Counted from the first letter of the stretch, positions 7,065 to 27,092 are shown. The stretch is 32,000 nucleotides of DNA from Mycolicibacterium smegmatis (GCF_001457595.1 NZ_LN831039.1:1200001-1232000), one strand, 5' to 3'. Numbers and translations are program-made. Notes: generated by a model from the sequence alone, not told the origin.

Positions 7065-7071
7065 CCCAGGT

Positions 7072-10574: not shown

Positions 10575-10779
10575 TTGGTATTTCCTGATTTTCTACAGAT
10601 CGGCCAGCGTCGAATGCCAGACCGTAAGTGGCGAATTCCCATTGAATTAGGAGCGCCGAGGAGAGGTTTTCCTTCTCTCTGATTTCAGAATAAGCGACGA
10701 TTCGCAAAATTAAGCAAAATTATGTGTAATCTACATCACAAAAGCTTGACAAATGAACGCCGAGGAATGGCGGATCTAT

Positions 10780-10788
10780 TGATAGAAT
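10780..10788 (+). promoter_or_regulatory. Extended -10 promoter element (TGATAGAAT) for the rightward operon
   Basis: A perfect TGn-TAnnnT extended -10 in the AT-rich divergent intergenic region (10575-10938). No good -35 lies at 17 bp. The TTGACA at 10746-10751 is 31 bp upstream, which is too far. Confidence 0.45.
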
Positions 10789-10938
10789 TAAAGGGAGAAG
10801 GGAATAAAACCCCCCACCACCTGCAAACCAACGGCAGCCAACGCCACCCGGCGTGGCGTCCAATAACGGTGCAGGAACCCCGGTAGCGTCCGCATTGGGA
10901 ACTGTGGGCTTGGGAGACGACCTTTTAGAGGAGAACCC

Positions 10939-11100
10939 ATGTCCAGAACACCCCACCATCGCTCTCGCGTTCAAGACGAACTCGAACGCCAGCAACGTGA
11001 AGAAGAACTGATCCGCGAAGCCGCCCGCACCGGGAACTGGAGCAAGCTGGAGGCCCTTGCCTCCGCAGACCTCCGCAAGGCCCGCAAGGAACTCTCGTGA
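10939..11100 (+). CDS. Small hypothetical protein (53 aa), first rightward ORF
   Basis: It is absent from the ORF track because it is under 60 aa. AGGAGA lies 5 nt upstream of ATG 10939. Translation: MSRTPHHRSRVQDELERQQREEELIREAARTGNWSKLEALASADLRKARKELS (charged helical). Confidence 0.45.
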   Translation: MSRTPHHRSRVQDELERQQREEELIREAARTGNWSKLEALASADLRKARKELS

Positions 11101-11237
11101 GCGCCGCCGCGGCTGGTTCCGGCTCCATCGAGGCCTAAATCGAAGAAGAAGGGCTTCTGGACTCGACAGAGGGCATCCAAGAGGAGAAGAGAATGAAAAC
11201 TGGTGTAAACCAACCGAATCTGGTGGTTCTGGCGTAG

Positions 11238-11780
11238 ATGGCGACGTACCACAAAGCAACACCCCGGTACGTGATGTCGTTCAACCAGTTCTGGGAGAAC
11301 CAAGCGTTCAACACCGACCTCACCCTGTGGCAGCGAGTGTTCGCCTTTGCGATGTCGCGTCACCTACCGAACCTCCACACACCATTCGAGCCCGGGCAAC
11401 TGGAAAAACTCCTCGGGGTCCAGCCGGATGGAACCGTCAAAACCATTCACCGGCAGAAGCTGTGGGAAGCGATCAACCACTTGAAGAAGATTGGCTGGCT
11501 GGATCAGTCGTCCGACCGGGAATGCCTCGTGCTTCCAGCCGAGGGCTTCGCGACAGGGATGAGGGGTAACAACAAGCCCTGCCCGCACCATTGCCAGGAG
11601 GCTCCAGCTCCGTCGAATGTGGTGTTCATTCGGGACCGCTCCGTTCCGTGCTCGAGTCCCAATGAAAGAGAATCTAATAGGGACGAAGCAAAACGGCAGG
11701 CCAGGGAAGTTTTGCGTCCCGAAAAACGGGACATGATGTCCCCAAAAACGGGACAAGCCCCGGAGGTGGTCGTCTCATGA
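11238..11780 (+). CDS. Hypothetical phage early protein (possible winged-helix DNA-binding N-domain)
   Basis: 180-aa ORF in the rightward operon. The stop overlaps the next start (ATGA at 11777). The N-terminal half (...LWEAINHLKKIGWLDQSSD) resembles a winged-helix fold, but this is weak. ATG 11274 is an alternative start. Confidence 0.5.
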   Translation: MATYHKATPRYVMSFNQFWENQAFNTDLTLWQRVFAFAMSRHLPNLHTPFEPGQLEKLLGVQPDGTVKTIHRQKLWEAINHLKKIGWLDQSSDRECLVLPAEGFATGMRGNNKPCPHHCQEAPAPSNVVFIRDRSVPCSSPNERESNRDEAKRQAREVLRPEKRDMMSPKTGQAPEVVVS

Positions 11781-12307
11781 CCGTGAAATGCCCAGTATGC
11801 AGCCAGTTTGTAAAGGTGAACTCCCGAGGAACCCTCCACCGGCACGGCCCTGCATTCCGTTGCCCGACTGTCGGACTCACCCCGGGCGAGATTGAGATCC
11901 TTCTTCAGGAAGGTCGACTCCCGGAGCTGACTGAGGAGCAGCGGCTCGGTGCGGTGTGTCCGGTGTGTGACCGGCGGATCAAGCTCACCAGGGCGGGATG
12001 CTTCCATCGCCACGGCCCGGAACCGTACATCTGCATGGGGTCGGGGCATTCTCCCGAGGTGGCTGCCAGATACAACCTGCCGCCGCTGTCCGAGGACCAG
12101 CTGGAGCTGTTCAGGCAGTGCTGGCGGACGGGCGACCCCCGGCCCGTGGAGGACGAGTTCGGCATCACCTGCTGGAAGGTCGGCCGGTATGCGTGCGACC
12201 GATTCGACTTCGACGGGATGCTGGCGGAGATGATCAAGTTCAACCGGAAGTGGATTGAACTCCTCATTGAACGCTCCAAAGCCCACTGGGAGGGCGTGGA
12301 ACGGTGA
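11777..12307 (+). CDS. Hypothetical protein with two tandem zinc-ribbon-like repeats
   Basis: Internal duplication: CPVCSQFVKVNSRGTLHRHGPAFRC and CPVCDRRIKLTRAGCFHRHGPEPYIC. ATGA coupling to the upstream gene. Confidence 0.6.
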   Translation: MTVKCPVCSQFVKVNSRGTLHRHGPAFRCPTVGLTPGEIEILLQEGRLPELTEEQRLGAVCPVCDRRIKLTRAGCFHRHGPEPYICMGSGHSPEVAARYNLPPLSEDQLELFRQCWRTGDPRPVEDEFGITCWKVGRYACDRFDFDGMLAEMIKFNRKWIELLIERSKAHWEGVER

Positions 12308-12413
12308 ACCCGGCTGGAACAGTGGAACAGCCCCCCCATATGCAGGCGGTGTCCCACTGTTCCGGTTCCGGTGTTGGTGAAGGAATCGGAGAGGGCAGTA
12401 GGGAAGTTGAGGT

Positions 12414-12893
12414 TTGCAGCTCGCTGAACTGATTCGGGAACTGGTGGAACCGAAGATGGTTGGGGGCGTGAAGATGTGCTCGGTCCTGGACCAGCTCCAC
12501 GCCCTTGGCCGTCCCCGAAATCTGATCATTGAGATCGAACAGACCGCCGCCAAGTGGTACCCGGAACTGGCCTCCACGGCTGATCGGCTTCGCATCGTCG
12601 CCAACAACCCGAAGGACTCCGAGGCGATGGCAAGGACTGTGAAGAGTTGGATTCGTCGGGCCGACCGGGTGTTGAACCCGAAGCCCCGCCGGTTGATCCC
12701 CGGCCAATGCCCAGAGTGCGGTGCCTCCGAAGTGGTTCGAGACCATCGTGGTGAAGAAGTCCGCCAACCAACCCTCCTTGTCGGTGTTGATGGTTGTGAG
12801 TGCCGATCTTGTCGGGCCGTGTGGGAACCGGACCAGCTGCTGGACTTGGCGAAGTATCTCGGGTTCCCGACACCAGAAGGTGTGTGCGCGTAG
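12414..12893 (+). CDS. Hypothetical protein with a C-terminal CxxC...CxCxxC zinc ribbon
   Basis: TTG 12414 is the first start after an in-frame TGA (12408-12410), with GGGAAG 7 nt upstream. CPECGASEV...CECRSC is present. The stop TAG overlaps the next GTG start. Confidence 0.5.
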   Translation: MQLAELIRELVEPKMVGGVKMCSVLDQLHALGRPRNLIIEIEQTAAKWYPELASTADRLRIVANNPKDSEAMARTVKSWIRRADRVLNPKPRRLIPGQCPECGASEVVRDHRGEEVRQPTLLVGVDGCECRSCRAVWEPDQLLDLAKYLGFPTPEGVCA

Positions 12894-13813
12894 TGAAAAT
12901 TGTCGTCCTCGGGAACCGCATCGAGTCGGGTCGCGTCTTTGAGTCTTGGCGTCCCGACTGTGTTGAGGCCCTCAAGCAGTTGGGCCACCAGGTCACGGCC
13001 CTGCCATTCGGTTCGGTGGCCGTGCCACTCCTTCGGAATGTCGCCAAAGACGCCGACATGCTGCTGTGGCTCAAAGATGAGCCCCCCTCGCCCGCTGAGG
13101 AAGTGATCGACGCTCTGCGGAGCCTGGAGGGTCGCGGCGTGGTCACGGTCGCCCTCCATATGGACCTGTTCCATGGGGTTGAGCGCCGCAAGGACCTGAT
13201 CGGGAAGTTGCCGTGGTGGACATGCCAGTACGTGTTCACCGCTGATGGCGGTGACCGGGACTGGGGTGGAGTGAACCATCGATGGTTCCCGCCGGCATTC
13301 GGCACCCGGTACCTGGGGCTGTGGGAGGCTGACGACCGGTACCGGCACAAAGCAACGTTTGTCGGAACCCACTCGCAGAGGATTCATGGTGATCACCGTG
13401 GGGCCCTGTTGCAGTGGGCGAACGGAACCTATGGGTGCGACTTCCGGCAGTACGGCACCAAGTCGTCTCCGGTGTGGGGCAAGAAGCTGAACAAGCTGTA
13501 CGCGACAGCCGATTTGGTGCTGGGCGATTCGGCCCCGGCCCCGTTCTATTGGTCTGATCGCGTTCCCAGAACCCTCGGCCGAGGCGGCATCCTCGCCCAT
13601 CCCCGCGTCCCCGGCATGGAGGAACAGGGCTTCACCGACGACGTGATGATCCTCTACGACCGGTTCGACTTCGCGTCCATCAAAGAACGTCGTGACTCAA
13701 TGACCGCAGCCGAAGTTAAGACGATGCGGGAGAACGCAGTTCAGGTTGTTCGAGAACGCCACATATGGCCGGTGGCGATGACTCGCGTACTTAAGGAAGT
13801 TGGGCTGGCATGA
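12893..13813 (+). CDS. Glycosyltransferase-like protein (CgeB/DUF3880-type, GT-B C-terminal half)
   Basis: GTG 12893 (TAGTG overlap). The pattern VKIVVLG..., KATFVG...., LNKLYATADLVLG, SDRVPRTLGRGGILAHPRV.GMEEQGF.D.V.ILYD......IKE........AEVKTMRENA...V.ERH fits my recollection of the CgeB spore-maturation-type glycosyltransferase family. Confidence 0.55.
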   Translation: MKIVVLGNRIESGRVFESWRPDCVEALKQLGHQVTALPFGSVAVPLLRNVAKDADMLLWLKDEPPSPAEEVIDALRSLEGRGVVTVALHMDLFHGVERRKDLIGKLPWWTCQYVFTADGGDRDWGGVNHRWFPPAFGTRYLGLWEADDRYRHKATFVGTHSQRIHGDHRGALLQWANGTYGCDFRQYGTKSSPVWGKKLNKLYATADLVLGDSAPAPFYWSDRVPRTLGRGGILAHPRVPGMEEQGFTDDVMILYDRFDFASIKERRDSMTAAEVKTMRENAVQVVRERHIWPVAMTRVLKEVGLA

Positions 13814-14520
13814 GCGTCCGACACATCATCATGGCTGCCGGTGAAGGAACCCGATGGGGCAATCACACCGGAGTGCCGAAGCATCTGATTTCCCCGCTGG
13901 ATGACGGTGAGGCGTTGTTGGCACGATTGGTGCGGCAGCTCCACGAGCGGGGCGAGAACGACGTGATCGTGACCGGCCCCCAGGACTACAAGGACTACCT
14001 CCCCGACCATGTTCAGGTCGTCACCCCGGATGTTTTGGGTGACACCGATGAGTGGCTGGGGGTGACCAAGTTCCACAACACGGTGCCGCATTGGTCGTCT
14101 ACCGGCCGCACGATCCTCTATTGGGGTGACTGTTGGCTTGATGACTGTGTGGTGGACGCGATCACCCGGTACGAGGCTCGCCGTTGGTTGAACTGGTGCC
14201 GCGTCAACAAGTCTCGGGTCACTGGTTGCCCATACGGGGAAAACTTCGCTGTCTCGTTCTTCCCAGAGCACCACAGCAAGTACCTGGAGGCAATGCAGAT
14301 CACGGCTGATGCTCACCGGGACGGTGAAATCACTCGGTCGGGCGGTTGGGAGGTGCTGCGGGCTTACGCCGGGGCGCGGGGACCGAAGATCCGCACCATG
14401 AACCGCAACCTGCCGCAGGTCCGCGATGTTGGGTATATGGGCACATCGTTCTCTGACGACTTTGACAAGCCAGAGGACTTCGACCGGTGGCAGAAGAACT
14501 GGAAGAAGCGGAATGCCTGA
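13810..14520 (+). CDS. Sugar-phosphate nucleotidyltransferase-like protein (GxGxR motif)
   Basis: ATGA overlap. The N-terminal IIMAAGEGTRWG....PKHL matches the nucleotidyltransferase signature (G-x-G-T-R-x(n)-PK) of GlmU/RmlA/LicC-type enzymes. The C-terminal half is unassigned. Confidence 0.6.
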   Translation: MSVRHIIMAAGEGTRWGNHTGVPKHLISPLDDGEALLARLVRQLHERGENDVIVTGPQDYKDYLPDHVQVVTPDVLGDTDEWLGVTKFHNTVPHWSSTGRTILYWGDCWLDDCVVDAITRYEARRWLNWCRVNKSRVTGCPYGENFAVSFFPEHHSKYLEAMQITADAHRDGEITRSGGWEVLRAYAGARGPKIRTMNRNLPQVRDVGYMGTSFSDDFDKPEDFDRWQKNWKKRNA

Positions 14521-15790
14521 CTTCGGCACCGATGGCATCCGGGGTGATATTTCCCCCGAGTTCGCCAAATCTCTCGGCATTGCGATTTCCCGGTTCGGCA
14601 ACCAGGTTGTGGTTGGTCGAGACACCCGCATCAGCGGCCAGGAGCTGGAGGACGCCCTCGTTGAAGGGCTTCGCTACGGCGCGAATGTGCAGCGGGTTGG
14701 GGTGGTGCCCACGCCGGCCCTGTCTTACTTCACCACCGACATGGGCGTGATGATCACCGCCTCCCACAATTTGATGCCCGACAATGGGTTCAAGATTTTC
14801 GGGCGGCTGGGCTACAAGCTGAACCCGGCTGGTCAGAAGCGGGTCCAATACTTCATTGGCGTCCCCGCGGTCAACGCTGGCGGCATGGAGGACACCCGCC
14901 TGCCCGGGTTGCTGGATCACTACATTCGTCGCGTCAGCAGGGTTGTGAGGGGCCTCGCCGGCCTCAAGATCGTGGTGGACTGTGCGAACGGTGCCACCCA
15001 CCGGGCCGCCCCCGAGGTGTACGCCAACGCCGGGGCTGAGGTCGTCGCCATCAACACCACCCCGGACGGCTGGAACATCAACCAGGATTGCGGCTCCACC
15101 AACCCGAGGATGCTTCAGGAAGCGGTCCTCACCCACCGGGCCGACCTTGGCATCGCTCACGACGGCGACGGGGACCGGGTCATCATGGTGGACGCCAACG
15201 GACAGATCGTTGACGGGGACGGCCTGCTGGCCGTTCTGGCGGTCGGCATGAAGGAGCGGGACGTTCTTACCGACGACACCATCGTGGTGACCCGGCTGAG
15301 CAACTCCGGGCTGTGGACCCGGCTCCGCGAAGACGACATCCGGGTGGCGGTGACCGATGTGGGTGATCACCATGTGGCGGAGCGGTTGCAGCGGAGGGGA
15401 TTGGCCCTCGGCGGGGAACCGTGCGGGCACATCATCATCCCGAAGTTGTTCCCGTCCAGTGACGGCATTCTCACCGCGATGAAGGTGATGTCGATCATGG
15501 TTGAATCCGGTGCCTCGCTGGCCGATTTGGCCCATTTCGACCGGATACCGCAATCTCACATCAACATCCCCGCCCGCAAGCCCAGTATTGCCGCCCAGAT
15601 GGCCCGTGAAGCGATTGACGAGATCGTTGAGGGTGTCGGCAAGGCGGGACGGATCATCGTGCGGGAGAGCGGCACTGAGCCCGTTGTCCGGGTGATGGTT
15701 GAGCATCCCACCGACGCGGACGGGCTGGCCCACGAGGTGGCCACCCACATCGAACAAGCAGAACTTCGCGCCCAGACTCTGGGTGTGTGA
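14513..15790 (+). CDS. glmM: Phosphoglucosamine mutase-like phosphohexomutase
   Basis: The four alpha-D-phosphohexomutase boxes are present: FGTDGIRG near the N-terminus, active-site loop TASHNLMPDNGFKIF, metal loop AHDGDGDRVIMVD, sugar loop GGEPCGHII and phosphate loop RESGTEPVVRVMVE. 8-nt overlap with the upstream gene. Confidence 0.85.
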   Translation: MPDFGTDGIRGDISPEFAKSLGIAISRFGNQVVVGRDTRISGQELEDALVEGLRYGANVQRVGVVPTPALSYFTTDMGVMITASHNLMPDNGFKIFGRLGYKLNPAGQKRVQYFIGVPAVNAGGMEDTRLPGLLDHYIRRVSRVVRGLAGLKIVVDCANGATHRAAPEVYANAGAEVVAINTTPDGWNINQDCGSTNPRMLQEAVLTHRADLGIAHDGDGDRVIMVDANGQIVDGDGLLAVLAVGMKERDVLTDDTIVVTRLSNSGLWTRLREDDIRVAVTDVGDHHVAERLQRRGLALGGEPCGHIIIPKLFPSSDGILTAMKVMSIMVESGASLADLAHFDRIPQSHINIPARKPSIAAQMAREAIDEIVEGVGKAGRIIVRESGTEPVVRVMVEHPTDADGLAHEVATHIEQAELRAQTLGV

Positions 15791-15805
15791 TTTACCGGAG
15801 GTTGC

Positions 15806-16154
15806 ATGACCATCAAGCTTGGCTGGGAGCCCCACCGCATCAAGCCAATCTTCTCCAAGGGTGTCGATTGGATTGTTTCCGTTGAGCCCGAGGGCGATTC
15901 ACCTGTGTGGCCAGAAGGGGCGACCGTCACCGCGGTTGTCTACGACAAGGCCACCGACGTGTCCGCACCCTTGGACGAGTGGATCGTCCTGTACTCGTGG
16001 GAGGGCACCATCCAGGACGACGTCCTGACGATCCGGGCTGAGTCGGCGGACACCGACATGGTCCCGGCAGGCTCCCTGATGAGGATTCGCGTCAGCTTCC
16101 CCAATACCCCGAACACCGACGACTACCTGTTCGCCAAGGGCGTGGTGGCCCGCG

Positions 16155-16162
<8 letters not shown>
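15806..16162 (+). CDS. Small hypothetical phage protein preceding the fibre genes
   Basis: 118 aa, with GGAGG 7 nt upstream of ATG 15806. Its stop overlaps the start of the collagen-like gene. No motif that I can name with confidence. Confidence 0.5.
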
Positions 16163-17058
<896 letters not shown>

Positions 17059-17062
<4 letters not shown>

Positions 17063-17691
17063 AGGTCTACTTCGGTGACCAGCCCCTGGACGAAGCTGTG
17101 TCGGTGTACTCCGGTGGGTACGCGGCAGCCGTCTATGTGGGCGACACGAAGCTGTGGCCAACCGAAGCTGTCACAACGATTTACAGCACAGCGGGCTCCA
17201 AGTCCTACACGTTCCCCACATGGTTCCGGCTGGGGGTCGATTACCTCGATGTCATCGCACTGGGCGGCGGGGGTGGCGGGTACCGGCCCGGATCGGGGCA
17301 GACCCAGGCACCCACAGACGGTGAGGATTCAGTGGTGGTTGTGCCGACCGGCTCCGGGGATGTCTCGGTTACTGGCGATGGAGGAGCGTTCAACTCGTCC
17401 AATGGAACCCTCCCAGGGCACGCAAATGGTGCGACGGCAATCAGCATGATGTTCAAGGGCACCTTCTATTTCGAGCCCACTTCAGGTAAGGGCGGCGATG
17501 GGGTTGCCGTCACGGCTGGGGTCATCGGCCGCGGCGGGACAGGGGGCAGCTGGGGGACAAACACCCTTCAGCCCACAGGTGCGATCACCGTCACCGTGGG
17601 TGCGGGCGGGCTGCCGAGAGTGACCACATTTGGAAGTGCTTCCCCAGGAAATCCTGGCAAGGTTTGGATCATCGCCTACCCGGCGGAATAA
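17059..17691 (+). CDS. Glycine-rich domain protein (minor-tail-like)
   Basis: GTGA overlap. [18 protein letters not shown] followed by G-rich stretches ([24 protein letters not shown]) is the pattern seen in actinophage glycine-rich minor tail proteins. Confidence 0.6.
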
Positions 17692-17707
17692 CGAAAGTCA
17701 TTGAACA

Positions 17708-19135
17708 GTGCCATATTTCTTTGATGGTGAACAGTGGGTGCAAACCTCCGCCCAGGCCGCGGAAGGCATGTCCGCCTACGAGGTCGCGGTAGCCAACGGC
17801 TTCGAGGGGACCGAATCAGAGTGGTTGGACTCCCTTGTCGGAGAACAGGGTCCACAGGGCGAGACTGGTCCGCAAGGTGAGACCGGCTCACAGGGCGAGC
17901 AAGGCCCGCAAGGTGATCCCGGCAAGTCCGCCTACCAGGTCGCGGTAGACGAGGGTTTTGAGGGGGACGAGGAGGCCTGGCTGGAAAGCCTGGTCGGTCC
18001 CCAAGGTGAGCAAGGCCCCCAGGGTGTTCAGGGTGAACCCGGAGCCAAGGGTGACAAGGGCGATACCGGCGAAAAGGGCGACCAAGGAGATCCCGGCCTG
18101 TCGGCGTACGAGGTCGCTCTCGACAACGGCTTTGAGGGCACCGAGTCGGAGTGGCTCGACTCACTCGTGGGGGAGCAAGGGCCGCAGGGTGAGCAGGGCC
18201 CCAAGGGTGACCAGGGCGATCCTGGAACGCAGGGCGAACAGGGACCCCAGGGCGATCCCGGCCTGTCGGCCTACGAAGTGGCTGTGGACAACGGCTTCGA
18301 GGGCGATGAAGAGGATTGGCTGGAATCTCTCGTCGGCCCGCAGGGCGAACCGGGGGAGCAGGGTCCCCAGGGCGAGCAGGGCCCTCAGGGCATTCAGGGT
18401 GAGACCGGACCGCAGGGTGATCCGGGTCCGTCCGCTTATGAAGTCGCACTGGACAATGGGTTTGAGGGCGACGAAGAGGATTGGCTGGAGTCGTTGGTGG
18501 GCCCCGAGGGGCCGAAGGGCGATGCCGGCGAGCAGGGGCCGAAGGGTGATCCTGGTGAGCCTGGCGAGCAGGGGCCTCAAGGCGATCCCGGCATGTCCGC
18601 CTATGAGGTGGCCGTCGATGAGGGTTTCGAAGGCACTGAAGAGGAGTGGCTGGAATCCCTGAAGGCTGACGGCATTCCGTGGCCGGATGAAGAGGGCACC
18701 GAGGGTCAGGTCCTGTCTTATGACGGGGACGGCGGGGTTGAGTGGATTGACCCACCCGAGGGTGGCGGGGGCGGTGGTGGGGCCCTACAGATCCCCTACG
18801 ACATGACCTGGACGCTGTACCTTGCACCAGGAACCGGGTCAACCAGCACCCCCTACCAGGCGTTCGAGGCAGTTATTGCGCGCGACTTCCACCTCGAAGA
18901 GGTTTCGATGCGGTATCTCACCGACACCAACCGAACAGCCACTCTTAGGCGCAACGACTCGTCACTGTCGGGCGAAACCTTGTCGCTGACTGGCAATGGG
19001 TCTTTTCAAACCGTTTACAGGAACATGAATTTAGATCTCGAACATGGGGAGAGTTTTGGAGCTGGCCTCAGTAGCACCGCCAATGTCCGCTGGGTGGTGA
19101 TCACCCTTCGCGGATACACCACAATCGACCTGTAA
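17708..19135 (+). CDS. Modular collagen-like fibre protein with six SAYEVAV-type knots and a C-terminal globular domain
   Basis: 475 aa from GTG 17708. Six copies of SAYEVA(V/L)xxGFEGxExEWLxSL(V/K)G alternate with five G-X-Y runs. A G7 linker and a 140-aa non-repetitive C-terminal domain follow. Confidence 0.8.
17771..18664 (+). repeat. Tandem 52-58 codon modules (knot plus about 10 G-X-Y triplets), 5.4 copies
   Basis: Repeat units were counted from the translation. Unit lengths are 52, 58, 55, 55 and 55 aa, plus a terminal knot. Confidence 0.85.
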
Positions 19136-19144
19136 GGAATCCCA

Positions 19145-19555
19145 ATGGCTTTGACCTACTTCGCCGTCACCGGCACCCTCCACGCTCTCATCTCCGACTC
19201 CTCCACGGACGACGACGGCAACCCGGATGTCCAGTACATCTCCTGCTTTGTGGACTTCGCTCCCAGTGTGCGGCAAGTCCATTCGTCCACCGACAACATC
19301 GTGTACCGGCTCCAGACGATCCGTGGCCGCACCAGCGTGGACGACGGTGAACTGAAAACCATCGACGGCAACACCCTCACGCTGGTCGCCAACTCTGCCG
19401 CCCTCGACCTGGAGGCCCTGTACTACACGGTCACCTTCTCCAACGTCGTCTACGACGGCAAGCGGGACCAGGTGATCGAAGGGTTCCGGTTCCTCGCCCC
19501 GACCGACGACACGGCCATTGACCTGTCCACGGTCGAAAGGCTGCCTCTGAAGTGA
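19145..19555 (+). CDS. Hypothetical phage protein following the fibre gene
   Basis: 136-aa ORF. Its stop overlaps the next GTG (GTGA). No motif recognised. Confidence 0.5.
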   Translation: MALTYFAVTGTLHALISDSSTDDDGNPDVQYISCFVDFAPSVRQVHSSTDNIVYRLQTIRGRTSVDDGELKTIDGNTLTLVANSAALDLEALYYTVTFSNVVYDGKRDQVIEGFRFLAPTDDTAIDLSTVERLPLK

Positions 19556-20178
19556 GCGTGGCCATCGGCGTTGTCGCCCACTGGAAACGGGCGGACATGG
19601 CCCAGGCCCTCGCCGAACAGGTCTCAGCCTCCTTCGTGTCCGTTGACGATGGCACCCTGGGGGCTGAGGCCAACCACCTACAAGTGTGGAAACACCTGGC
19701 CGACATGGGAACCACCCACTGCTGTGTGCTGGAAGACGACGCCGTCCCGGTTGATGGTTTCCGCGACCAGCTGGACCAGGCCATCGAAGTTGCACCGGCA
19801 CCCGTGGTGTCGCTGTACTTGGGTCGCAGCCGCCCACCGCAGTGGCAGCCCAAGATCTACCGGGCGATAGAGAAGGCTGACGACGACACCTGCTGGATAG
19901 TCGGCACCCATCTCCTCCACGCGGTCGGGGTGGTTATCCCTACCGACTTGGTGCAGTCGATGACCAGCCACCGGACGAACCTGCCCATCGATCAGTCGAT
20001 CTCGCTGTGGGCAAGGGTGCGTGGACACAGGGTGGCGTACACCGTTCCTTCGCTTGTCGATCACCTGGACGGCCCCACTCTGATCCAGCACCCGGACGGG
20101 AAGCCGAGGCCGGCGGGCCGAGTGGCCTGGCAAGTGGGCACCCGAAACAAATGGACCGATAAGGCGGTGAACCTGTAA
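19552..20178 (+). CDS. GT-A-type glycosyltransferase-like protein (resembles family GT25)
   Basis: LGAEANHLQVWKHLADMGTTHCCVLEDDAVPVDGF resembles the GT25 core (G..GC..SH...W........ILEDD......F), with EDD as the DxD-like motif. This assignment is from memory and needs a profile search. Confidence 0.5.
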   Translation: MSVAIGVVAHWKRADMAQALAEQVSASFVSVDDGTLGAEANHLQVWKHLADMGTTHCCVLEDDAVPVDGFRDQLDQAIEVAPAPVVSLYLGRSRPPQWQPKIYRAIEKADDDTCWIVGTHLLHAVGVVIPTDLVQSMTSHRTNLPIDQSISLWARVRGHRVAYTVPSLVDHLDGPTLIQHPDGKPRPAGRVAWQVGTRNKWTDKAVNL

Positions 20179-20429
20179 TGGCGTGGAAAGTTGACGCCCC
20201 CGGTTCTTGCATTTCCCGGCGGACAAAAACAATCGTCATGAAAAGGGACCGCGGCGAATGCCAGCTCGGATATGAAGGCTGCGATGTCACCGTGGGAATC
20301 GAATTCGACCACATTGTCTCCGTGAAGGCGATGAAAATTGCCCGCGTGAACGCTGACGACCCGGAACTCATTCAGCTGGCCTGTGTCCCGTGTCACCGGA
20401 AAAAGGGCTCTTCGCACTTGACGGTGTAG
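20178..20429 (+). pseudogene. HNH endonuclease gene, 5' part, interrupted by IS insertion after codon 76
   Basis: CQLGYEGC...EFDHIVSVKA...NADDPELIQLACVPCHRKK is an HNH core with flanking CxxC pairs. From 20406 the ORF reads into the IS inverted repeat (GSSHLTV stop). Confidence 0.85.
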
Positions 20430-20469
20430 AGACGATCAGCTGCTTTCGCGCTGTGATCGAGGGGTCTGG

Positions 20470-21222
20470 TTGGCTTGGGGTGTGCCGGAGAAGAAGCGGA
20501 AGAGCAAGAGGAAGAGCGGAGTGTCCGGGGGCAGTGTGGACCTGGCGTTGCTGCAGAAGCTAATGGCCGACGCTGGTCGGAACGTGTTCGCGGGAATGTT
20601 CGATGAGCCGACGCCCGAGGTGCGGGCGGTGCCGGATCGTGCGCGGGGCTTCCGGGTGCGCGTCGACCTGATGTACGCCAAGCCGCCGATCTGGCGTCGG
20701 CTGGACCTGCCGGGCGACCTCATGCTCGATGAGCTCCATGTTGTGCTGCAGGTCGTTATGGGCTGGCAGGACAGTCATCTGCATAAGTTCGGTGTCGGGG
20801 CGGACCGGCGGACCCGTGCCTACTTCGTCACCGGGTTTGATCTCAGCGAAGGCGACGACGGTGTCGTCGAGGACAGCGTGCGCCTCGATCAGGTGGTGTC
20901 CGATAAGGGCGAGCGGTTGTTCTACGATTACGACTTCGGCGACGGATGGGACCACGTGCTCGTGGTCGAAGACGTTTTCGATGATCCGCCCCCGGCTGCG
21001 GTGTGTCTGACGGGAAAGATGGCCTGTCCGCCGGAGGACTGTGGTGGCCTGGGCGGCTATGAGGAGTTGGCTGCGTGGGTTCGCGGCGGGTACGACCCGC
21101 GGGAAACGCCGATGGGACTCGGTGCGCAGGAGATGAGGGACTGGCTGCCCCGGGGCTGGCACCCCGACCGTTTCTCGGTGGCCGAGACCAATGACGCTCT
21201 GGCCGCGTTGAACACGCGTTGA
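20470..21222 (+). CDS. tnpR: pRiA4b ORF-3-like protein (IS1096 TnpR-like accessory protein)
   Basis: FRVRVDLMYAKPPIWRRLDLPGDLMLDELHVVLQVVMGWQDSHLHKF...YDYDFGDGWDH...CPPEDCGG are the hallmark motifs of the PRiA4_ORF3 family. Confidence 0.8.
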   Translation: MAWGVPEKKRKSKRKSGVSGGSVDLALLQKLMADAGRNVFAGMFDEPTPEVRAVPDRARGFRVRVDLMYAKPPIWRRLDLPGDLMLDELHVVLQVVMGWQDSHLHKFGVGADRRTRAYFVTGFDLSEGDDGVVEDSVRLDQVVSDKGERLFYDYDFGDGWDHVLVVEDVFDDPPPAAVCLTGKMACPPEDCGGLGGYEELAAWVRGGYDPRETPMGLGAQEMRDWLPRGWHPDRFSVAETNDALAALNTR

Positions 21223-21229
21223 GGATTCT

Positions 21230-22552
21230 TCACCGCCGAGGTTGACGGAGCTGGGTTCGGAAGCCTCCGGTCTCGAGCAGGGACCGGGCGATGTAGTTGG
21301 TGAGGTTGCGGAAGCCCAGGGCGGATCCGCGCAGGTGTTCGAGGCGGCCGTTGATCGCTTCGGTCGGCCCGTTGGAGGTGCCGGGGCGGTCGAAGTAGGC
21401 CAGGACGTCGGCGGCACGCTTCTTCAGTGTCCGCCCGAGGGTGATCAGCTCGGTCAGCGACGTGGGGACGCCTGTGCTCAGCGTGGTGATCAGTGCAGCC
21501 ATCATGGTGCGGCCCTTGGTGCGGTCTGGTTCGCGGTAGGCGGCCACGGTGCGTTGATACATCGCCCAGGTGGCCTCGATCTCGGCGTGCGCGTTGGCGG
21601 CGAACAGTGCGGCCAGTCGGGCTTTCTGGCGGTCGGTGAGCAGGTCGGCCCCGGTGTGCAGGGTGCGTCGCGATCGGTAGAGCGGGTCGGTGCTGCGGCC
21701 GCGGTGCCCGCAGGTGGCCAGCTGCACGCGGCGTCGGCACTCGTCGAGGGCGTTGCCGGCCAGGCGGACCACGTGGAAGGGGTCCATCACCGTGGCCGCG
21801 TCAGGCAGTTCTTCGGTGGCGGCGGTCTTGAACCCGGAGAACCCGTCCATGGCAACAACGTCCACACGATCACGCCACTCCTGTGGCCGCTGTGCCAGCC
21901 AGTCGGCGAACGCCTTCTTGGAGCGGCCCTCCACCATGTCGAGCAGCCGTGCGGGGCCGGTCCCGTCACGCACGGGCGTGAGATCGATGATGACGGTGAC
22001 GTACTTGTCGCCGCGGCGAGTGTGCCGCCACACGTGCTCATCGACGCCGATCACCGCGACGCCATCGAACCGGGCCGGATCGGCGATGAGCACCCGCTGA
22101 CCTTCGGCGAGCACGGCGTTGTTGGCAGTGTTCCACGACACCGCAAGCGCCTCGGCGACCCGGGCCACCGACAGGTGTTGGCAGACAAGGGCTTCCAGCG
22201 CCCACCGCAGAGCACGCCGGGACAGCCTGGCCCGCGGTTCGGCTGCGGCGCTGGCATCCTGGCGCCACACATGAGCGCAGCCGGCGCAACGGTAACGGCG
22301 GATCGTGACCAGCAAAGCCGTGGGTCGCCACCCGAACGGTTCATGAGCCAACGTGCGAGTCACGCTGTCACGTACAACGCCTTCTTCGCCGCAGCGGCGG
22401 CACCACCGATCCTCATCGGCGACCCGGCACGCCAGCACGGCCCGATCAGGGTCGAGGCGTTGGCCGGTCACCTCCAACCCGAGCTCGTCGAGGCGGCAGA
22501 AAGTCGTCAGGTCAGCGCAGGCGAAGCCCGCCCGACCGGTAGCGTCAGGCAC
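21230..22552 (-). CDS. tnpA: ISL3-family transposase
   Basis: 440 aa. N-terminal zinc-finger region (CRRCGEEG...YRCAGC), the DDE core region and the C-terminal NGPTEAINGRLEHLRGSALGFRNLTNYIARSLL are typical of ISL3 transposases. Confidence 0.9.
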   Translation of the reverse strand: MPDATGRAGFACADLTTFCRLDELGLEVTGQRLDPDRAVLACRVADEDRWCRRCGEEGVVRDSVTRTLAHEPFGWRPTALLVTIRRYRCAGCAHVWRQDASAAAEPRARLSRRALRWALEALVCQHLSVARVAEALAVSWNTANNAVLAEGQRVLIADPARFDGVAVIGVDEHVWRHTRRGDKYVTVIIDLTPVRDGTGPARLLDMVEGRSKKAFADWLAQRPQEWRDRVDVVAMDGFSGFKTAATEELPDAATVMDPFHVVRLAGNALDECRRRVQLATCGHRGRSTDPLYRSRRTLHTGADLLTDRQKARLAALFAANAHAEIEATWAMYQRTVAAYREPDRTKGRTMMAALITTLSTGVPTSLTELITLGRTLKKRAADVLAYFDRPGTSNGPTEAINGRLEHLRGSALGFRNLTNYIARSLLETGGFRTQLRQPRR

Positions 22553-22662
22553 GTCGAGGTCTTTCAGATGGATGGCGTAGGAACCTCCATCATCGGAAGA
22601 CCTCGACCCCTATCCCGGCACCGACGCGCCGACGACCTCTACACCCTCAACTGCGAAGAGCC

Positions 22663-22745
22663 GGAAAAAGACTCAGAGGGAGGCGTGGGAGGGCCGCAAT
22701 AAATGGCGACGGAAACCAATGCCTCACCCTGGTCTTGCGAAATAG
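22663..22745 (+). pseudogene. Displaced 3' end of the HNH endonuclease gene
   Basis: Joining 20405 to 22671 restores ...CHRKK-TQREAWEGRNKWRRKPMPHPGLAK-stop (TAG 22743-22745), the usual basic ...HPG tail of phage HNH proteins. The reconstructed gene is 100 codons. Confidence 0.75.
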
Positions 22746-22771
22746 CTGAACAGCTGATTTGACGAATTCAA

Positions 22772-22780
22772 TGTTATAAT
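22772..22780 (+). promoter_or_regulatory. Extended -10 promoter element (TGTTATAAT)
   Basis: A perfect TGn-TATAAT in a short AT-rich spacer, 27 nt upstream of ATG 22807. Confidence 0.5.
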
Positions 22781-22806
22781 CAGCAGTAGGAGAAGGTTTT
22801 CTTTCT

Positions 22807-23025
22807 ATGAAATTCACTTGCCTCTGTGGCCACTCAATGGGTGAACATCCCGGTGGGAATTCCTGCCAGGAACCGACCGGCCGCTGCCAATGCCAGCAAG
22901 CCATCTGGCTTTGCCCCAAGTGTCAGCACGCCAAGACCACCCACGAGAACGGTCCCTGTGTCCGCGTTGTTCAACGGACACAAACGCTGTGCCGCTGCGA
23001 GTTCAGCGACTGGCCCACAAGCTAA
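22807..23025 (+). CDS. Cys-rich small protein (72 aa, 11 Cys), moron-like
   Basis: MKFTCLCGHSMGEHPGGNSCQEPTGRCQCQQAIWLCPKCQH...CRC. It is bracketed by its own extended -10 and two downstream hairpins. Confidence 0.55.
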   Translation: MKFTCLCGHSMGEHPGGNSCQEPTGRCQCQQAIWLCPKCQHAKTTHENGPCVRVVQRTQTLCRCEFSDWPTS

Positions 23026-23067
23026 TTGACTCCCCCGCCCGTGCCCTTCTCTCTCCTCCCGGGGGCG

Positions 23068-23102
23068 GGCCGCGCCGAGACGGGTATCTAGAAGGCGCGG
23101 CC
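23068..23102 (+). terminator. Stem-loop after the Cys-rich gene
   Basis: GGCCGCGCC (23068-23076) pairs perfectly with GGCGCGGCC (23094-23102). It is preceded by a second weaker hairpin, CCCGCCC/GGGCGGG (about 23031-23069). Confidence 0.5.
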
Positions 23103-23127
23103 ACTTTCACTTCAGGGAAGCCGCCGA

Positions 23128-23304
23128 ATGGAATTGCCAGATGCCCCGGACGGCTTCCACTGGGTCGTGGTGGGGGTACCCACACAGCCATGGGTGTGGG
23201 TCCACGACTTCGTAGCACACTCCACCAAACGCAAAGTCTTGTGGTCCTACAGGGTGCTGGTAGCGACAGCAGGGGACGCCTGGGCGTACATCGATGAGGA
23301 TTGA
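23128..23304 (+). CDS. Small hypothetical protein (58 aa)
   Basis: It is absent from the ORF track because it is under 60 aa. GGGAAG lies 7 nt upstream of ATG 23128. Translation: [58 protein letters not shown]. It overlaps the glmU-like start by 11 nt. Confidence 0.35.
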
Positions 23305-24562
23305 GACAGCTGCCATCGTCTTGGCCGCAGGCGTCGGGACCCGGATGCAATCCAACACCCCGAAGGTGCTCCACCGGCTGGCCGGGAGAACAATCATCTC
23401 CCATGTCCTGCACGCGGTCTCAACGCTTCGAGCCGACCGCCTGATTGTTGTTCTCGGGTACGAGCGGCATCAGATCCTTCCCGAAGTGGAACAGGTAGCA
23501 GCCGAACTTGGCATAGACCTATGGATCACCGTCCAGGAGCAACAACGAGGCACCGGACATGCCGTTTCCTGCGGCCTGACAGCCCTCCCAGACGACTTTC
23601 ACGGCCGAGTGGTGGTAACACCAGGGGACACACCGCTTCTCGCCCCAGAGACGTTCACAGCGTTGATGGACTGTCCCACCAACACGGTGGTGACCACCAC
23701 CCTGAACGACCCCACCGGATACGGCAGGGTCCTGCGGATGCCCGATGCGGACCTGATCGGGATCGTTGAGCACAGCGACGCCAACACCCACCAGCTCACC
23801 ATCCGCGAAGTCAACGCCGGGATCTACAGCTTCGCCCATGACGGACTCCACACCAGCCTGATGCGGCTGCGGGCCGACAACGCCCAGCGGGAACTGTACC
23901 TACCGGATGTGGTTGGCCTCCTCCGCGAAGACGGCCACAACGTTCACACCCTCCAGGTGGAGCCCGATGTGGTTGCGGGGGTGAACGACCGGGCCCAGTT
24001 GGCTGAAGCCGCGAGGATTCTCAACCGCAGGATCGTCACCGCCCACCAGTTGGCCGGCGTCACAATCACCGACCCGGCAACAACGTGGATCGACCTGGAC
24101 GTGAAGATCGGCCGGGACACCATCATCCACCCCAACACCCACATCCACGGGGACACCAGGATCGGGGCGGGCTGCGAGATCGGCCCCTTTGCCTATGTGC
24201 GGCCAGGAACCCACCTCGGGGACGGCAGCAAGGTCGGGGCGTTCGTGGAGGTGAAGAACTCCACCATCGGCACCGGCACCAAGATCCCACACTTGACCTA
24301 CGTGGGGGACGCAGACATCGGGGACCACACCAACATCGGTGCGGGCACAGTTGTCGCGAACTACGACGGCCAAACGAAACACCGGACCACCATCGGATCG
24401 AACGTGAAGGGCGGGGCGGACACCACCTACGTGGCACCAGTCACTGTTGGGGACAACGCCTACACGGGTGCGGGAACCGTGGTCCGAGAAGACATTCCAC
24501 CGGCACACCTGGCGGTATCGGCCGGGAAGCAACGGAACATCGAGAAGAGGAAGACGTGCTGA
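23294..24562 (+). CDS. glmU: GlmU-like bifunctional GlcNAc-1-P uridyltransferase / GlcN-1-P acetyltransferase (shortened)
   Basis: [44 protein letters not shown] and [11 protein letters not shown] form the uridyltransferase domain. The left-handed beta-helix and [27 protein letters not shown]...[13 protein letters not shown] form the acetyltransferase domain. At 422 aa it is shorter than the mycobacterial GlmU I recall. Confidence 0.9.
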
Positions 24563-24717
24563 AAGACTTCCTGATGAAGGACGTGATGTCGAGCCCTGTG
24601 TACAAGAGCTTGATCGAGCAAGTGGAGGCTCGCCTCCGTCAGGTGATCCGTGAGGAGCTTGAGCGGGCGGGCCACTGTGGATGCGCGCCTGAAGCGCCGA
24701 GGCCGGGTTGTCACTGA
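24556..24717 (+). CDS. Small hypothetical protein (53 aa)
   Basis: GTG 24556 overlaps the glmU stop. The product is helical with a Cys-containing tail ([14 protein letters not shown]). Weak support. Confidence 0.3.
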
Positions 24718-25571
24718 TCCGCTGACCGCAGGCGCGCCATCCAGGTGTTGAGCAGCTCGGTGATGAACTGTCGCCCTTCTTCCAGGGACATGGGGTTGTT
24801 TATCTCCGCGGTAGATCTGGCATGGCGGGCCTTCTGAGCAGGCACCGTAAACCGGCTGACACCGTTCTTGCTCACTCCCAGCAGTTCGTGAACTGCGTTC
24901 GGCATGGTCTCGTCCTTCTGGATCGAGTCCCGGACAATCTCGTACACGTCATAGAGTTCACGGAAGGTGATTGGATTGGTCCTCCCGAGGATTCCGAGCG
25001 CTTCAGCAACGTCGGGATGGGATCCGGCCAAGGCGGCACGCCCCGGCCAGGGCGATGGCGGGCCAGGGACCTCTGTGCCGTCTGGTCGTCGCTGAGTAAC
25101 CACCGGGACGCCTCCGCGGAGTTCAAGCAAGGCAGGGCGCGGATATATCACTTCTGATCCACCATCGGTGACCCTGCCACCAAGTTCGACCGGTCGGAAC
25201 CCTCTGTGGTGAAGAGCGGCAAGCCCATTCAGGATCGATAGGACCCGCTGGGCCACCGCGTGCGGGTTCTCGCCGTCCGAAGAGTTCTCGATCTCCGGAG
25301 ACGTCAGATAATACCGGCCATCCTCCAGCACCACCCGCGTGTCCCCGGAGTCGAAGAGAACGGCGAGAACCTGAAGATCTGTTCGGTGACCGTCCAACCA
25401 TACCTTGATCCGTGCAGCATCGTGTGTGGGGTCCATCCACTGATCATCGCTCAGGGGTGCGACATCACGCGGACGGATTGTGGTGTGTTCGGTGCCGAGA
25501 GACGAAATGCCCTCCGCCTCAGCGATCTGGTTTCCCGGAAGGTTCGACAATCTGTGGAGGATCCTCGACAC
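24711..25571 (-). CDS. Hypothetical soluble protein (cassette gene D, 286 aa)
   Basis: Long ORF convergent with the glmU operon; the ends overlap by 7 nt. The start is uncertain: GTG 25571 overlaps gene C by 53 nt, and ATG 25436 is the alternative. No motif recognised. Confidence 0.55.
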   Translation of the reverse strand: MSRILHRLSNLPGNQIAEAEGISSLGTEHTTIRPRDVAPLSDDQWMDPTHDAARIKVWLDGHRTDLQVLAVLFDSGDTRVVLEDGRYYLTSPEIENSSDGENPHAVAQRVLSILNGLAALHHRGFRPVELGGRVTDGGSEVIYPRPALLELRGGVPVVTQRRPDGTEVPGPPSPWPGRAALAGSHPDVAEALGILGRTNPITFRELYDVYEIVRDSIQKDETMPNAVHELLGVSKNGVSRFTVPAQKARHARSTAEINNPMSLEEGRQFITELLNTWMARLRSADQ

Positions 25572-26127
25572 CTTCTATCTCGCCTAGCGGACCAGGAAGA
25601 GGATTGTGTTGCTTCTGCGCCGTTGCCAGCGCCCACCGGACCTCTTCGTCTTTGAACTCCAAGGCACGATTCCGCAGATTGCGCAGGCTCCGAAGGAGCA
25701 CGATCCGAGACCACCACGGGTGCCAAGCCAAACCGGTAAGGACCCCGGCGGCATCACGGACCAATGTGTTGAAGTACCCGTTGATCGGACCCGAGTAACC
25801 CTTCAGGTCGGGAAAGTAATCGACGGCATCCTCACTGAGGCCTCGTGCCGCGTGCGCGAGAACGACATAGTGATGCACGGCTTTGCGCGGAATGCGTGCG
25901 ATCAAGGCCGCGGTTTCCAAGTCGTGGACCGCGGTGATGAAGTCCCTAAAGCCGACGTGATCAGGTTCAGTGGCCCACCGTTGGGATTCGGTCTCGCGGA
26001 GGGCCTTGAGGACTGCACTGCGGACCTCTCGGCGCGAGCGGCCACCGCCAAACCAATTGCCGATCAGCGACGCGACTCCCAGGGCGCCCAGAAGTGGGGC
26101 GTACTGCAATAGGTTCTGTACGTTCAT
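25519..26127 (-). CDS. Hypothetical membrane-anchored protein (cassette gene C, 202 aa)
   Basis: One N-terminal hydrophobic helix (LLQYAPLLGALGVASLIGNWFGG) followed by a soluble helical domain. No motif recognised. Confidence 0.55.
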   Translation of the reverse strand: MNVQNLLQYAPLLGALGVASLIGNWFGGGRSRREVRSAVLKALRETESQRWATEPDHVGFRDFITAVHDLETAALIARIPRKAVHHYVVLAHAARGLSEDAVDYFPDLKGYSGPINGYFNTLVRDAAGVLTGLAWHPWWSRIVLLRSLRNLRNRALEFKDEEVRWALATAQKQHNPLPGPLGEIEGVEDPPQIVEPSGKPDR

Positions 26128-26198
26128 GCCGTGAAGGTATCGCCCGCCGACCCGCTGTCGGTCACCGAGGGCTGAAGAACCACCCCCGATGCGGAAGG

Positions 26199-27092
26199 TC
26201 AGCCCGACATCCGGTCAGCCAGTGGCACAGCGTGGCTGGTCTTATCCGTCCCAGCGATCAAAAAGTCGCCGCGGAACTCGAACGCTTTGAAGTACTCGTG
26301 GTAGTACCGGTTCACCTGCTCAACCAGCTGGAGGTAATCGAAGATGTACCGCCAGAGGAACGAGACATTCTCCTGCGGTGTCAGCTTCACGATGATGGAG
26401 TCGAACTGGCTGAACATGACGAAGTAGCCACGCTGTTCGATTGCAATGATGTAGTTGATCAGCTCGGAGGATAGATGGCCGGAGAATTCCAGAAGCTCGC
26501 GGTTGAGTTTCCGGGACTTCTCTGACGATCTTAGAAGGGCATCTCGGACCGTGGCCGGCCGTTCTGACCCATCGGAATTCACAATCTTCATCTTTACCTG
26601 CGTATTCAGTGAGATGAGGGAGCAGGTCTCAGCCACGTTCTCGGCGGTACAGCGGCGGCCAGTCGGCGCACCGGCCGCCCCGTTCAACAGCCCCATCAGA
26701 GTCACTGCTTCCGCAACGATCTGATTGACGAGCGGCGACAGGTTCTCGTACACGTTCTGTCGATCTCGACGCAGAGGGAGCCGAACTACCAGCAGATAGA
26801 AGACGAACGCTCCGATATAGGCGATGCCCAAGTCGTAGAGGAGGTCGCCCCATTGAGCGCCCATGTGGAAGATGGGCCGCACCTTTGCGAACACAACGTG
26901 CTGAAGGACCGTGTACACGACGAAGAACCCCAACGCGGCCCAGAGGGACCGATTGAGCCGCCGCTCATGGGAACTCAAATACGCGTAGCGGTTCCAGCTG
27001 CGGTAGGCATCCAGCAACGCCCTGAGCTTCAGTTGGCTCTTTCGCACAAGAGCATCCCCCGACTGCGCGATGTCAAAAGCAGAGAAAGACAC
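26199..27092 (-). CDS. Hypothetical two-TM membrane protein with a cytoplasmic C-terminal domain (cassette gene B, 297 aa)
   Basis: Two hydrophobic helices (LWAALGFFVVYTVLQHVVFA and LLYDLGIAYIGAFVFYLLVV) follow a 48-aa N-terminus and precede a 190-aa soluble domain. Local GC is about 47-57 percent by hand count of 60-nt lines, the lowest of any coding region in the window. Confidence 0.6.
   Translation of the reverse strand: MSFSAFDIAQSGDALVRKSQLKLRALLDAYRSWNRYAYLSSHERRLNRSLWAALGFFVVYTVLQHVVFAKVRPIFHMGAQWGDLLYDLGIAYIGAFVFYLLVVRLPLRRDRQNVYENLSPLVNQIVAEAVTLMGLLNGAAGAPTGRRCTAENVAETCSLISLNTQVKMKIVNSDGSERPATVRDALLRSSEKSRKLNRELLEFSGHLSSELINYIIAIEQRGYFVMFSQFDSIIVKLTPQENVSFLWRYIFDYLQLVEQVNRYYHEYFKAFEFRGDFLIAGTDKTSHAVPLADRMSG

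Follow-up and report, generated by a model that had tools for sequence, protein, structure and literature searches.

A Mycolicibacterium smegmatis prophage with a candidate virion glycosylation cassette and its own glmM- and glmU-like genes

Glycosylation of mycobacteriophage virions was reportedly first described in 2023 and is said to affect recognition by antibodies; the glycans are said to sit on the C terminus of the capsid and tail tube subunits. Antibody recognition of glycosylated virions matters for the phage therapy of mycobacterial disease. With reference to the work of Freeman et al. (2023, Cell Host Microbe), PMC12363180 names Che8 gp110 and Corndog gp38 as two glycosyltransferases essential for capsid glycosylation, and PMC11600133 states that phage transferases of the gp110 family modify capsid and tail tube proteins; both, and likewise PMC11256854, cite that work for the O-glycosylation of Che8 and Corndog virions. 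Herein, we analysed a stretch of 32,000 nucleotides from M. smegmatis (GCF_001457595.1 NZ_LN831039.1:1200001-1232000), hereafter the window, with positions counted from its first letter. It holds the right arm of a temperate siphophage that occurs as a prophage in some M. smegmatis strains, with tRNA-Tyr as its integration site. A rightward gene array of this prophage encodes a homologue of Che8 gp110, a second glycosyltransferase, a small nucleotidyltransferase (NT), a GlmM-type mutase and a short GlmU. Judged from the genes, the array would be a Che8-type virion O-glycosylation cassette enlarged by its own hexosamine donor supply, and we give this reading a probability of roughly 0.55. An earlier note on this DNA had proposed a self-contained module that makes an activated amino sugar and attaches it to co-encoded collagen-like fibres or to the host envelope. 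All the open reading frames (ORFs) it named are present on the + strand, and the enzymes are the following.

12893-13813, + strand: GT-B glycosyltransferase, GT4-like and PF13524-type (phrog_28745, 1.8e-93)
13810-14520, + strand: small nucleotidyltransferase with a GxGTR motif (N-terminal signature GxGTR(x)nK), partner of GT-B (Pfam NTP_transf_3, 25.1 bits, cut-off 27)
14513-15790, + strand: GlmM-type phosphohexosamine mutase, diverged (four Pfam PGM_PMM domains)
19552-20178, + strand: GT-A glycosyltransferase, GT25-like, homologue of Che8 gp110 and Corndog gp38 (phrog_854, 3e-80; DXD motif LEDDA)
23294-24562, + strand: short GlmU (TIGR01173, 473.6 bits, cut-off 366.85)

The two glycosyltransferases and the C-terminal -GS ends

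The GT-A protein was 51% identical to Che8 gp110 over 201 of 208 amino acids (aa), that is, over the full length. Homologues were found in 734 phage records, 661 of them from mycobacteriophages. In Che8, gp108, gp109 and gp110 are followed by one small gene, an HNH gene and the genome end; in the prophage, the GT-A gene is followed by an HNH gene, small ORFs, glmU and the terminase. The GT-A family is tied to protein glycosylation, which also counts against the idea that the sugars serve DNA hypermodification (glycosylated bases) and not proteins. Phages do glycosylate DNA with their own glycosyltransferases (PMC13326640), but no base-hydroxylating or hydroxymethylating enzyme and no deoxynucleoside monophosphate kinase was found between the integrase and the terminase. 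Given the absence of base-modifying enzymes, we rejected the DNA-modification reading as highly improbable.

The second glycosyltransferase, encoded at 12893-13813, gave a weak match to Pfam Glyco_trans_1_2 (22.2 bits vs. a cut-off of 25). PF13524 was present in most of its 327 homologues. An AlphaFold (AF2) model built from 62 homologues reached a predicted local distance difference test (pLDDT) score of 93.2, and a Foldseek search of the PDB with this model returned 7qsg, 4xsr, 3mbo, 3c4q and 2gej (E 2e-9 to 1e-6). The nearest proteins were M. hassiacum ManT (methylmannose-polysaccharide mannosyltransferase), HepE, BshA, MshA and PimA, with a top E of about 1e-9 and TM values of 0.6-0.68. 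At the level of the model, a two-Rossmann GT-B fold of the GT4-like type is confirmed for this product, and the earlier call of a glycosyltransferase stands.

The GT-B gene is followed by the NT gene. A family profile was built from 61 of the 764 NT relatives and compared with solved structures; the best match was 2ggo (ST0452, 9e-8), followed by 2xme (CTP:inositol-1-phosphate), 1jyk (LicC, CTP:phosphocholine) and GlmU. By this profile, membership of the nucleotidyltransferase fold family is secure, as the GxGxR motif had indicated to the earlier reader, and the solved relatives act on sugar-1-phosphates or alcohol phosphates. Single-sequence PDB searches with the GT and the NT were uninformative. 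In nine Streptomyces phages, GT-B adjoins NT and a methyltransferase gene comes next. By gene order, GT-B and NT are a widespread actinophage pair.

The putative acceptors were suggested by the C termini of the virion proteins. The HK97-type capsid protein of the prophage ends in ...YTVDNGS and its tail tube protein in ...GQVDDGS. The corresponding ends are ...NKTGS and ...YSDGS in Che8, and ...PLVGS (gp41) and ...IKGDS (gp49) in Corndog. Among the 27 prophage proteins that were read, only the capsid protein and the tail tube protein end in GS; this end was found in none of the 16 window proteins (including both collagen-like proteins, the glycine-rich protein and the 136-aa protein) and in none of the 9 other head and tail proteins. 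The capsid proteins of Severus and ArV2, which are 50-61% identical to that of the prophage, stop two residues earlier, at ...NAA.

We compared these ends with those encoded in 80 viral loci from IMG/VR that carry a GT-B homologue (L023-L102). In this set of 968 non-redundant ORFs, -GS was the most frequent C-terminal dipeptide, with 41 occurrences where 5.3 were expected (P = 4e-23). When ten GS-ending ORFs were run through Pfam, six proved to be major capsid proteins (P22-type, SU10 and Phage_capsid_4) and two tail tube proteins; the remaining two had no match. The tail tube protein of phage Rooney ends in ...HTAGS and its capsid protein in ...DDGSALS, and the capsid protein of L021 ends in ...TETDGS. 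The -GS end was also noted at 15944-16846 and 18314-18904 of L015. Since the tag occurs on capsids of unrelated folds, it appears to travel with these transferases, and this distribution suggests that -GS is a portable acceptor tag. If the acceptor reading is true, a tag found on at least three of the Pfam capsid families tested, on the prophage's own capsid and on tail tubes could perhaps be built into therapeutic phages.

The mutase, the short GlmU and the proposed supply of activated sugar

The mutase encoded at 14513-15790 retains all four phosphohexomutase loops, as the earlier note had seen: TASHN82 (phosphoserine), DGDGDR217 (metal), GEPCGH301 (sugar) and RESGTEP384 (phosphate). The sugar loop reads GEPCGH where relatives have GEQSGH. 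Against solved structures, GlmM scored 1e-82 and PMM/PGM 1e-31, and the best PDB matches were all GlmM. The nearest relative among all proteins was at most 48% identical. The glmM gene overlaps the NT gene by 8 nt and is translationally coupled to it.

GlmU was 62-64% identical to mycobacterial GlmU, with a length of 422 aa vs. 480-500 aa in relatives. Its uridylyltransferase domain is intact. Uridylyltransferase motifs and acetyltransferase catalytic residues are kept (LAAGxGTRM, GTGHA and the segment aligned to the NYDG region of relatives). In the AF2 model, the six-residue strand periodicity of the beta-helix is continuous across the junction of a 33-aa deletion. With the actinobacterial GlmU model PRK14352 it scored 583 vs. 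a cut-off of 611. Should the C-terminal tail of mycobacterial GlmU serve host regulation, the short phage GlmU, in which this tail is absent, could be a deregulated version. The earlier note had placed this gene 3 kb downstream of the other enzymes. The gene is where it was said to be, but the distance results from a copy of the insertion sequence (IS) IS1096 that lies in the HNH gene; in IS-free copies of the prophage, 851 nt separate the GT-A stop from the glmU start.

We searched for other phages with these two genes. A tblastn search of 50,697 phage records with GlmM and GlmU gave only matches below 40% identity. Most of these were in bacterial records that were unannotated or mislabelled, and no actinophage was among them. 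GlmM peptide patterns found no close relative among the GTDB species representatives and IMG/VR. In the IMG/VR alignments, only solitary GlmM relatives were seen (36-40% identity, no glyco-genes nearby) and no actinobacterial-type GlmU. The earlier note knew of no described phage system that couples both glmM and glmU with collagen-like substrates; in support of this, the phage-record and IMG/VR searches found no close copy of either gene. By these searches, the combination of glmM and glmU with these transferases is present in no phage record or IMG/VR contig searched. A phosphohexomutase-like gene (23%) and a GlmU-like gene (31%) lie side by side on one giant-virus contig in IMG/VR (L122, 2222-4713, a metagenome-assembled genome); no other viral contig was found to have genes of both kinds.

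The absence of glmM and glmU from every related cassette would also be expected if the two genes were metabolic passengers or decaying remnants, for example sustaining the wall-precursor pools of the host, with no tie to the transferases. The shortening of GlmU points the same way, and so do the IS elements and the frameshift in the prophage. However, despite far-reaching divergence from the cellular copies (48% identity for GlmM and about 63% for GlmU), all catalytic motifs and an open frame are kept in both, which argues for long purifying selection in a phage lineage. Furthermore, glmM overlaps the NT gene, and glmU comes after the array and is oriented alike. We regard the passenger explanation as unlikely.

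The proposed mechanism is as follows. During late expression, GlmM would convert glucosamine-6-phosphate (GlcN-6-P) to GlcN-1-P. GlmU would then yield UDP-N-acetylglucosamine (UDP-GlcNAc); its uridylyltransferase half is certainly intact, and its acetyltransferase half is uncertain. Alternatively or additionally, the small NT would activate a sugar-1-phosphate. The glycan itself would be assembled by GT-A and GT-B, with the C-terminal Ser of the major capsid protein (...VDNGS) and of the tail tube protein (...VDDGS) as attachment points. The genes at 15806-19135, for the LtfC-like, collagen-like and Gly-rich proteins, would be a side-fibre cassette, brought in by mosaic insertion, and not the primary substrate. 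The analysis shows the gene families, the homologies, the gene order, the tag with its statistics and, within the searches made, the uniqueness of glmM and glmU; we infer which sugar is used, in what order the enzymes act, when they are expressed and that the short GlmU is active. From a natural cassette that includes glmM and glmU, a glycan containing an amino sugar is predicted. Such a cassette also offers a genetic handle on how the donor is supplied, that is, on the sugar, the nucleotide and the enzyme that starts the chain.

Several observations weigh against this reading. In the NT, the profile match covers the first 113 residues only, and the C-terminal half is family-specific. The mutase scored 403.8 bits, below the cut-off of 447.55 of the NCBIfam equivalog TIGR01455. 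The beta-helix (LbH) of GlmU has a 33-aa deletion between two IGP/VGP repeats. GlmU also stops just before a conserved GW, and the C-terminal arm, residues of which contact acetyl-CoA in other GlmUs (PMC11947611), is absent. The short GlmU may make UDP-GlcNAc only from host GlcNAc-1-P, or it may be impaired. The GT-A and GT-B families each occur alone in phages with -GS-tagged capsids. Finally, the prophage shows decay in some strains: IS1096 is inserted in the HNH gene, CP082846.1 has a second IS, and fibre gene 1 is frameshifted.

A further-reaching claim is that this would be the first bacteriophage known to make a hexosamine nucleotide by enzymes of its own (GlmM together with a streamlined GlmU, a dedicated NT or both) for decorating capsid and tail with an amino-sugar glycan, independent of the regulated UDP-GlcNAc pool of the host. 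We put this forward tentatively and consider it rather doubtful as a whole.

Side-fibre genes, array assembly and the prophage setting

The remaining features of the array and of the prophage are listed below.

6982-7066, + strand: tRNA-Tyr, where the prophage is integrated (attL side; ARAGORN; host genes to its left)
7084-8499, - strand: tyrosine integrase; the longest ORF has 471 aa, and gene callers give 409 aa at 7084-8313 (Pfam Phage_integrase, 1e-20; gene call in L008)
12414-12893, + strand: DUF7340 zinc-ribbon protein (Pfam DUF7340, 4e-16); its stop overlaps the GT-B start (TAGTG junction)
15806-16162, + strand: LtfC-like beta-sandwich protein, candidate collar or adaptor for side fibres (Pfam LtfC PF23926, 62.7 bits, cut-off 27)
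16155-17062, + strand: collagen-like fibre protein 1 with a Phage_tail_C tip, split; the uninterrupted ORF is 16337-17062
17059-17691, + strand: glycine-rich minor tail protein (Pfam Gly_rich_2, weak; PHROG minor tail families)
17708-19135, + strand: collagen-like fibre protein 2 (Pfam Collagen, 8e-34; five GXY blocks of 10-12 triplets)
19145-19555, + strand: 136-aa tail-like protein (phrog_11690, 1.4e-27); its stop overlaps the GT-A start
20178-20429, + strand: HNH endonuclease of 83 aa here and 100 aa in copies free of the IS, which has replaced the 3' end of the gene
20406-22660, no strand assigned: IS1096, 2,255 bp (ISL3 transposase and pRiA4-ORF3 passenger; Pfam)
22807-23304, + strand: two small ORFs, one Cys-rich (22807-23025) and one of 58 aa (23128-23304) that overlaps the glmU start by 11 nt
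27703-30961, + strand: small and large terminase subunits, first genes of the structural arm

Eight start/stop overlaps exist between 11777 and 20178, the number the earlier note had counted, but they are not consecutive as it had stated, being interrupted by gaps of 106, 15, 16 and 9 nt. The junctions between the genes are tightly coupled. A terminator scan found no terminator-like site on the + strand inside the array, and promoter and terminator counts were at background level. The collagen-like, Gly-rich and GT25-like genes previously noted are all present; collagen-like gene 1 is split by a -1 shift.

In the T5-like phage DT57C, LtfC is the collar that anchors the lateral fibres via their N-termini (PMC10713586). 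Because the first gene of the cassette is LtfC-like, the cassette fits a side-fibre module. In collagen-like gene 1, the 39 N-terminal codons (from 16155) reach the collagen frame only via a -1 shift at the C5 run 16268-16272. The shifted fusion is seamless, with 302 aa, and reads ...VVPVPGP up to the junction. The split region was identical in six independent assemblies and is therefore not a read error; it is either a programmed frameshift or a fixed lesion. A tblastn search with the fused N-terminus of fibre protein 1 found nothing that bridges the frameshift junction. In CP082846.1, a second IS (DDE_Tnp_1_4 transposase; L008 11772-13175) lies exactly at the start of collagen-like gene 1 (window 16155-16159). 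Collagen-like protein 2 has 475 aa here and in some strains, and 455 aa in CP082846.1 (L008 14922-16289) and two drafts.

Could the activated amino sugar go onto these co-encoded fibres, in the manner of BclA? In favour of this, the fibre genes are flanked by transferase genes and show translational coupling with their neighbours, and the collagen repeats contain some GXT and GXS triplets. However, the Y position is mostly Q, P or K, and only 13 of the 99 triplets have T or S, unlike the GPT repeats of BclA. GXY repeats are present, but the GXT-rich repeats of a BclA-type glycosylated collagen are not. No fibre protein carries the C-terminal Ser tag.

The 136-aa gene that overlaps the GT-A start also bears on the fibre question. 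Its product is 46% identical to gp111 of the M. abscessus prophage phiGD20-1 (L127 6995-7411), the gene for which is embedded near that prophage's right end, with glycosyltransferase genes 107-109 on one side and 115 on the other. Because this homologue is found inside M. abscessus glycosyltransferase cassettes, some tail-like component may belong with the transferases, and by this gene context the 136-aa protein and the gp110-like GT may be partners in function. Another homologue of the 136-aa protein occurs in phage Gaia.

Comparison of loci also argued against the fibres as acceptors. In the 80 IMG/VR loci, NT follows GT-B in 49, a methyltransferase gene is found in 29 and a gp110-like GT in 5; glmM, glmU and an LtfC-like gene were found in none, and the fibre cassette likewise in none of the 80 and not in Che8. 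The closest GT-B (62%) is carried by a 61-kb phage contig (L020, the contig of L023). Its right end holds GT-B, an inserted HNH gene, NT (52%), a gp110-like GT (46%) and an HNH gene. In L024, GT-B, NT and the gp110-like GT are contiguous. Neither L023 nor L024 has glmM or the fibre genes. Because NT adjoins the gp110-like GT in these two loci, glmM and the fibre cassette look inserted between NT and GT-A. Relative to L023 and L024, the prophage appears to have gained glmM and the fibre cassette at this point and glmU after the HNH gene; by gene order, these look like insertions. The neighbouring collagen-like fibre genes are probably bystanders and not glycosylation targets. We hold the collagen acceptor unlikely, and it was the least supported part of the earlier note. 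That the fibres are glycosylated too, in addition to capsid and tail and in the manner of giant-virus fibrils, is less likely still than the further-reaching claim given above.

The other acceptor proposed earlier was the host envelope. Under such lysogenic conversion, the prophage would modify an envelope glycan and so mask a receptor or exclude superinfecting phages. The element is a prophage, UDP-GlcNAc supplies mycobacterial wall synthesis, and glmU lies near leftward genes (24711-27474) that are possibly expressed in the lysogen. However, the array proteins have no transmembrane segment (19-residue hydropathy at most 1.55), and no flippase or polyprenyl-phosphate transferase was found in the array. 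Since the enzymes lack membrane segments, envelope conversion of the Gtr type is disfavoured. In addition, the genes share their orientation with tail genes to which they are coupled, and are therefore probably late, and homologous GTs occur in lytic phages (Corndog and Streptomyces phages). We consider envelope modification improbable. In sum, the part of the earlier proposal that concerns the enzymes holds, since they could take GlcN-6-P to an activated amino sugar and include two bona fide glycosyltransferases. Its acceptor claim is not supported: GT-A is a Che8 gp110 homologue, -GS is on the capsid protein and the tail tube protein, the fibres look inserted and membrane segments are absent.

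The prophage nature of the element, as assumed in the earlier note, is supported by tRNA-Tyr and the integrase at the left end and by both terminase genes downstream. The left 7 kb of the window is chromosome (aldehyde dehydrogenase, ABC transporter, luciferase-like oxidoreductase and YajQ). In exact-sequence look-ups, every module enzyme was found in M. smegmatis genomes only (CP082846.1, drafts and SRA assemblies), which makes this a prophage of some non-mc2155 M. smegmatis strains. CP082846.1 is a 6.98-Mb M. smegmatis chromosome that carries the prophage. Each module enzyme is a singleton 90% cluster; the representative of the GlmM cluster is a 128-aa fragment labelled Escherichia coli, from a 384-bp contig (MCU7231409.1), and is probably M. 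smegmatis DNA contaminating that assembly. In a search of phages for DNA nearly identical to 10400-25400, the sole match was the IS1096 copy of Mycobacterium phage LouisV14, which is 100% identical to the copy here. By this search, the prophage corresponds to no isolated, sequenced phage. IS1096 is polymorphic among strains, with an empty site in L017, and is not part of the module; strains free of it include the sources of SRR32024592 and SRR32024572. Since it lies in the HNH gene by the genome end, the prophage may be packaging-defective in this strain.

Several neighbouring genes were also recorded. The four leftward genes at 24711-27474 (- strand), between glmU and the terminase, include one with a hydrophobic segment and gave no match in Pfam, PHROGs or PADLOC. 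This gene set varies by strain (286/202/297/96 aa here vs. 279/168(+)/282/96 aa in L016), and the genes may be morons expressed in the lysogen. The large terminase (28130-30961) has 943 aa here, and 884-937 aa by the gene callers in other strains. Its middle matches the homing endonuclease Hom_end, and this insert is probably an intein by its sequence. A homing-endonuclease gene of the HNH_3/NUMOD4 type lies at 9682-10395 (- strand) among the early leftward genes.

Comparison with known systems

Prophage seroconversion of the Gtr type differs from this array in its membrane-embedded flippase, bactoprenol GT and serotype-specific GT; the array proteins have no transmembrane segments. The side-fibre cassette resembles that of T5 and DT57C (LtfC collar and LtfA, PMC10713586) in that an LtfC-like gene directly precedes a fibre gene with a beta-strand-rich N-terminus. 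It differs in that the prophage fibre is collagen-like with a frame change in the gene, and in that the prophage is an actinophage.

For the donor supply, the cellular actinobacterial GlmM-GlmU pathway from GlcN-6-P to UDP-GlcNAc shares families and catalytic motifs with the prophage enzymes. However, the prophage GlmM is at most 48% identical, GlmU is shortened and the genes lie in a phage late array and not at chromosomal loci. Mimivirus and Megavirus have a UDP-GlcNAc pathway, glycosylated fibrils and collagen-like proteins. The likeness to giant viruses is one of concept, a virus-encoded synthesis of nucleotide amino sugars for particle decoration; the viruses are unrelated, their enzymes are 23-31% identical and their hosts are eukaryotic.

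A trio of GT, nucleotidyltransferase and methyltransferase is carried by Streptomyces phages, among them Rooney (gp31-33), Yara and Wentworth, and by many actinophage contigs in IMG/VR. There, GT-B (40-62% identity) and NT (28-55%) are neighbours in the order seen here, and the capsid or tail tube also ends in -GS. A methyltransferase gene is usual in those phages (29 of 80 loci) but glmM and glmU never occur, whereas the prophage array has no methyltransferase. In comparison with Che8 and Corndog, the prophage cassette is interrupted in its middle by the side-fibre cassette, which Che8 does not have. Homologues of Che8 gp108 and gp109 are absent from the prophage (BLASTP, no significant similarity); it has GT-B and the small NT instead, and in addition glmM and glmU, both absent from Che8 and Corndog. 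The prophage shares with these two phages the gp110-family GT-A, the order of GT, HNH and genome end, a capsid and tail tube with a C-terminal Ser (-GS), and a mycobacterial host.

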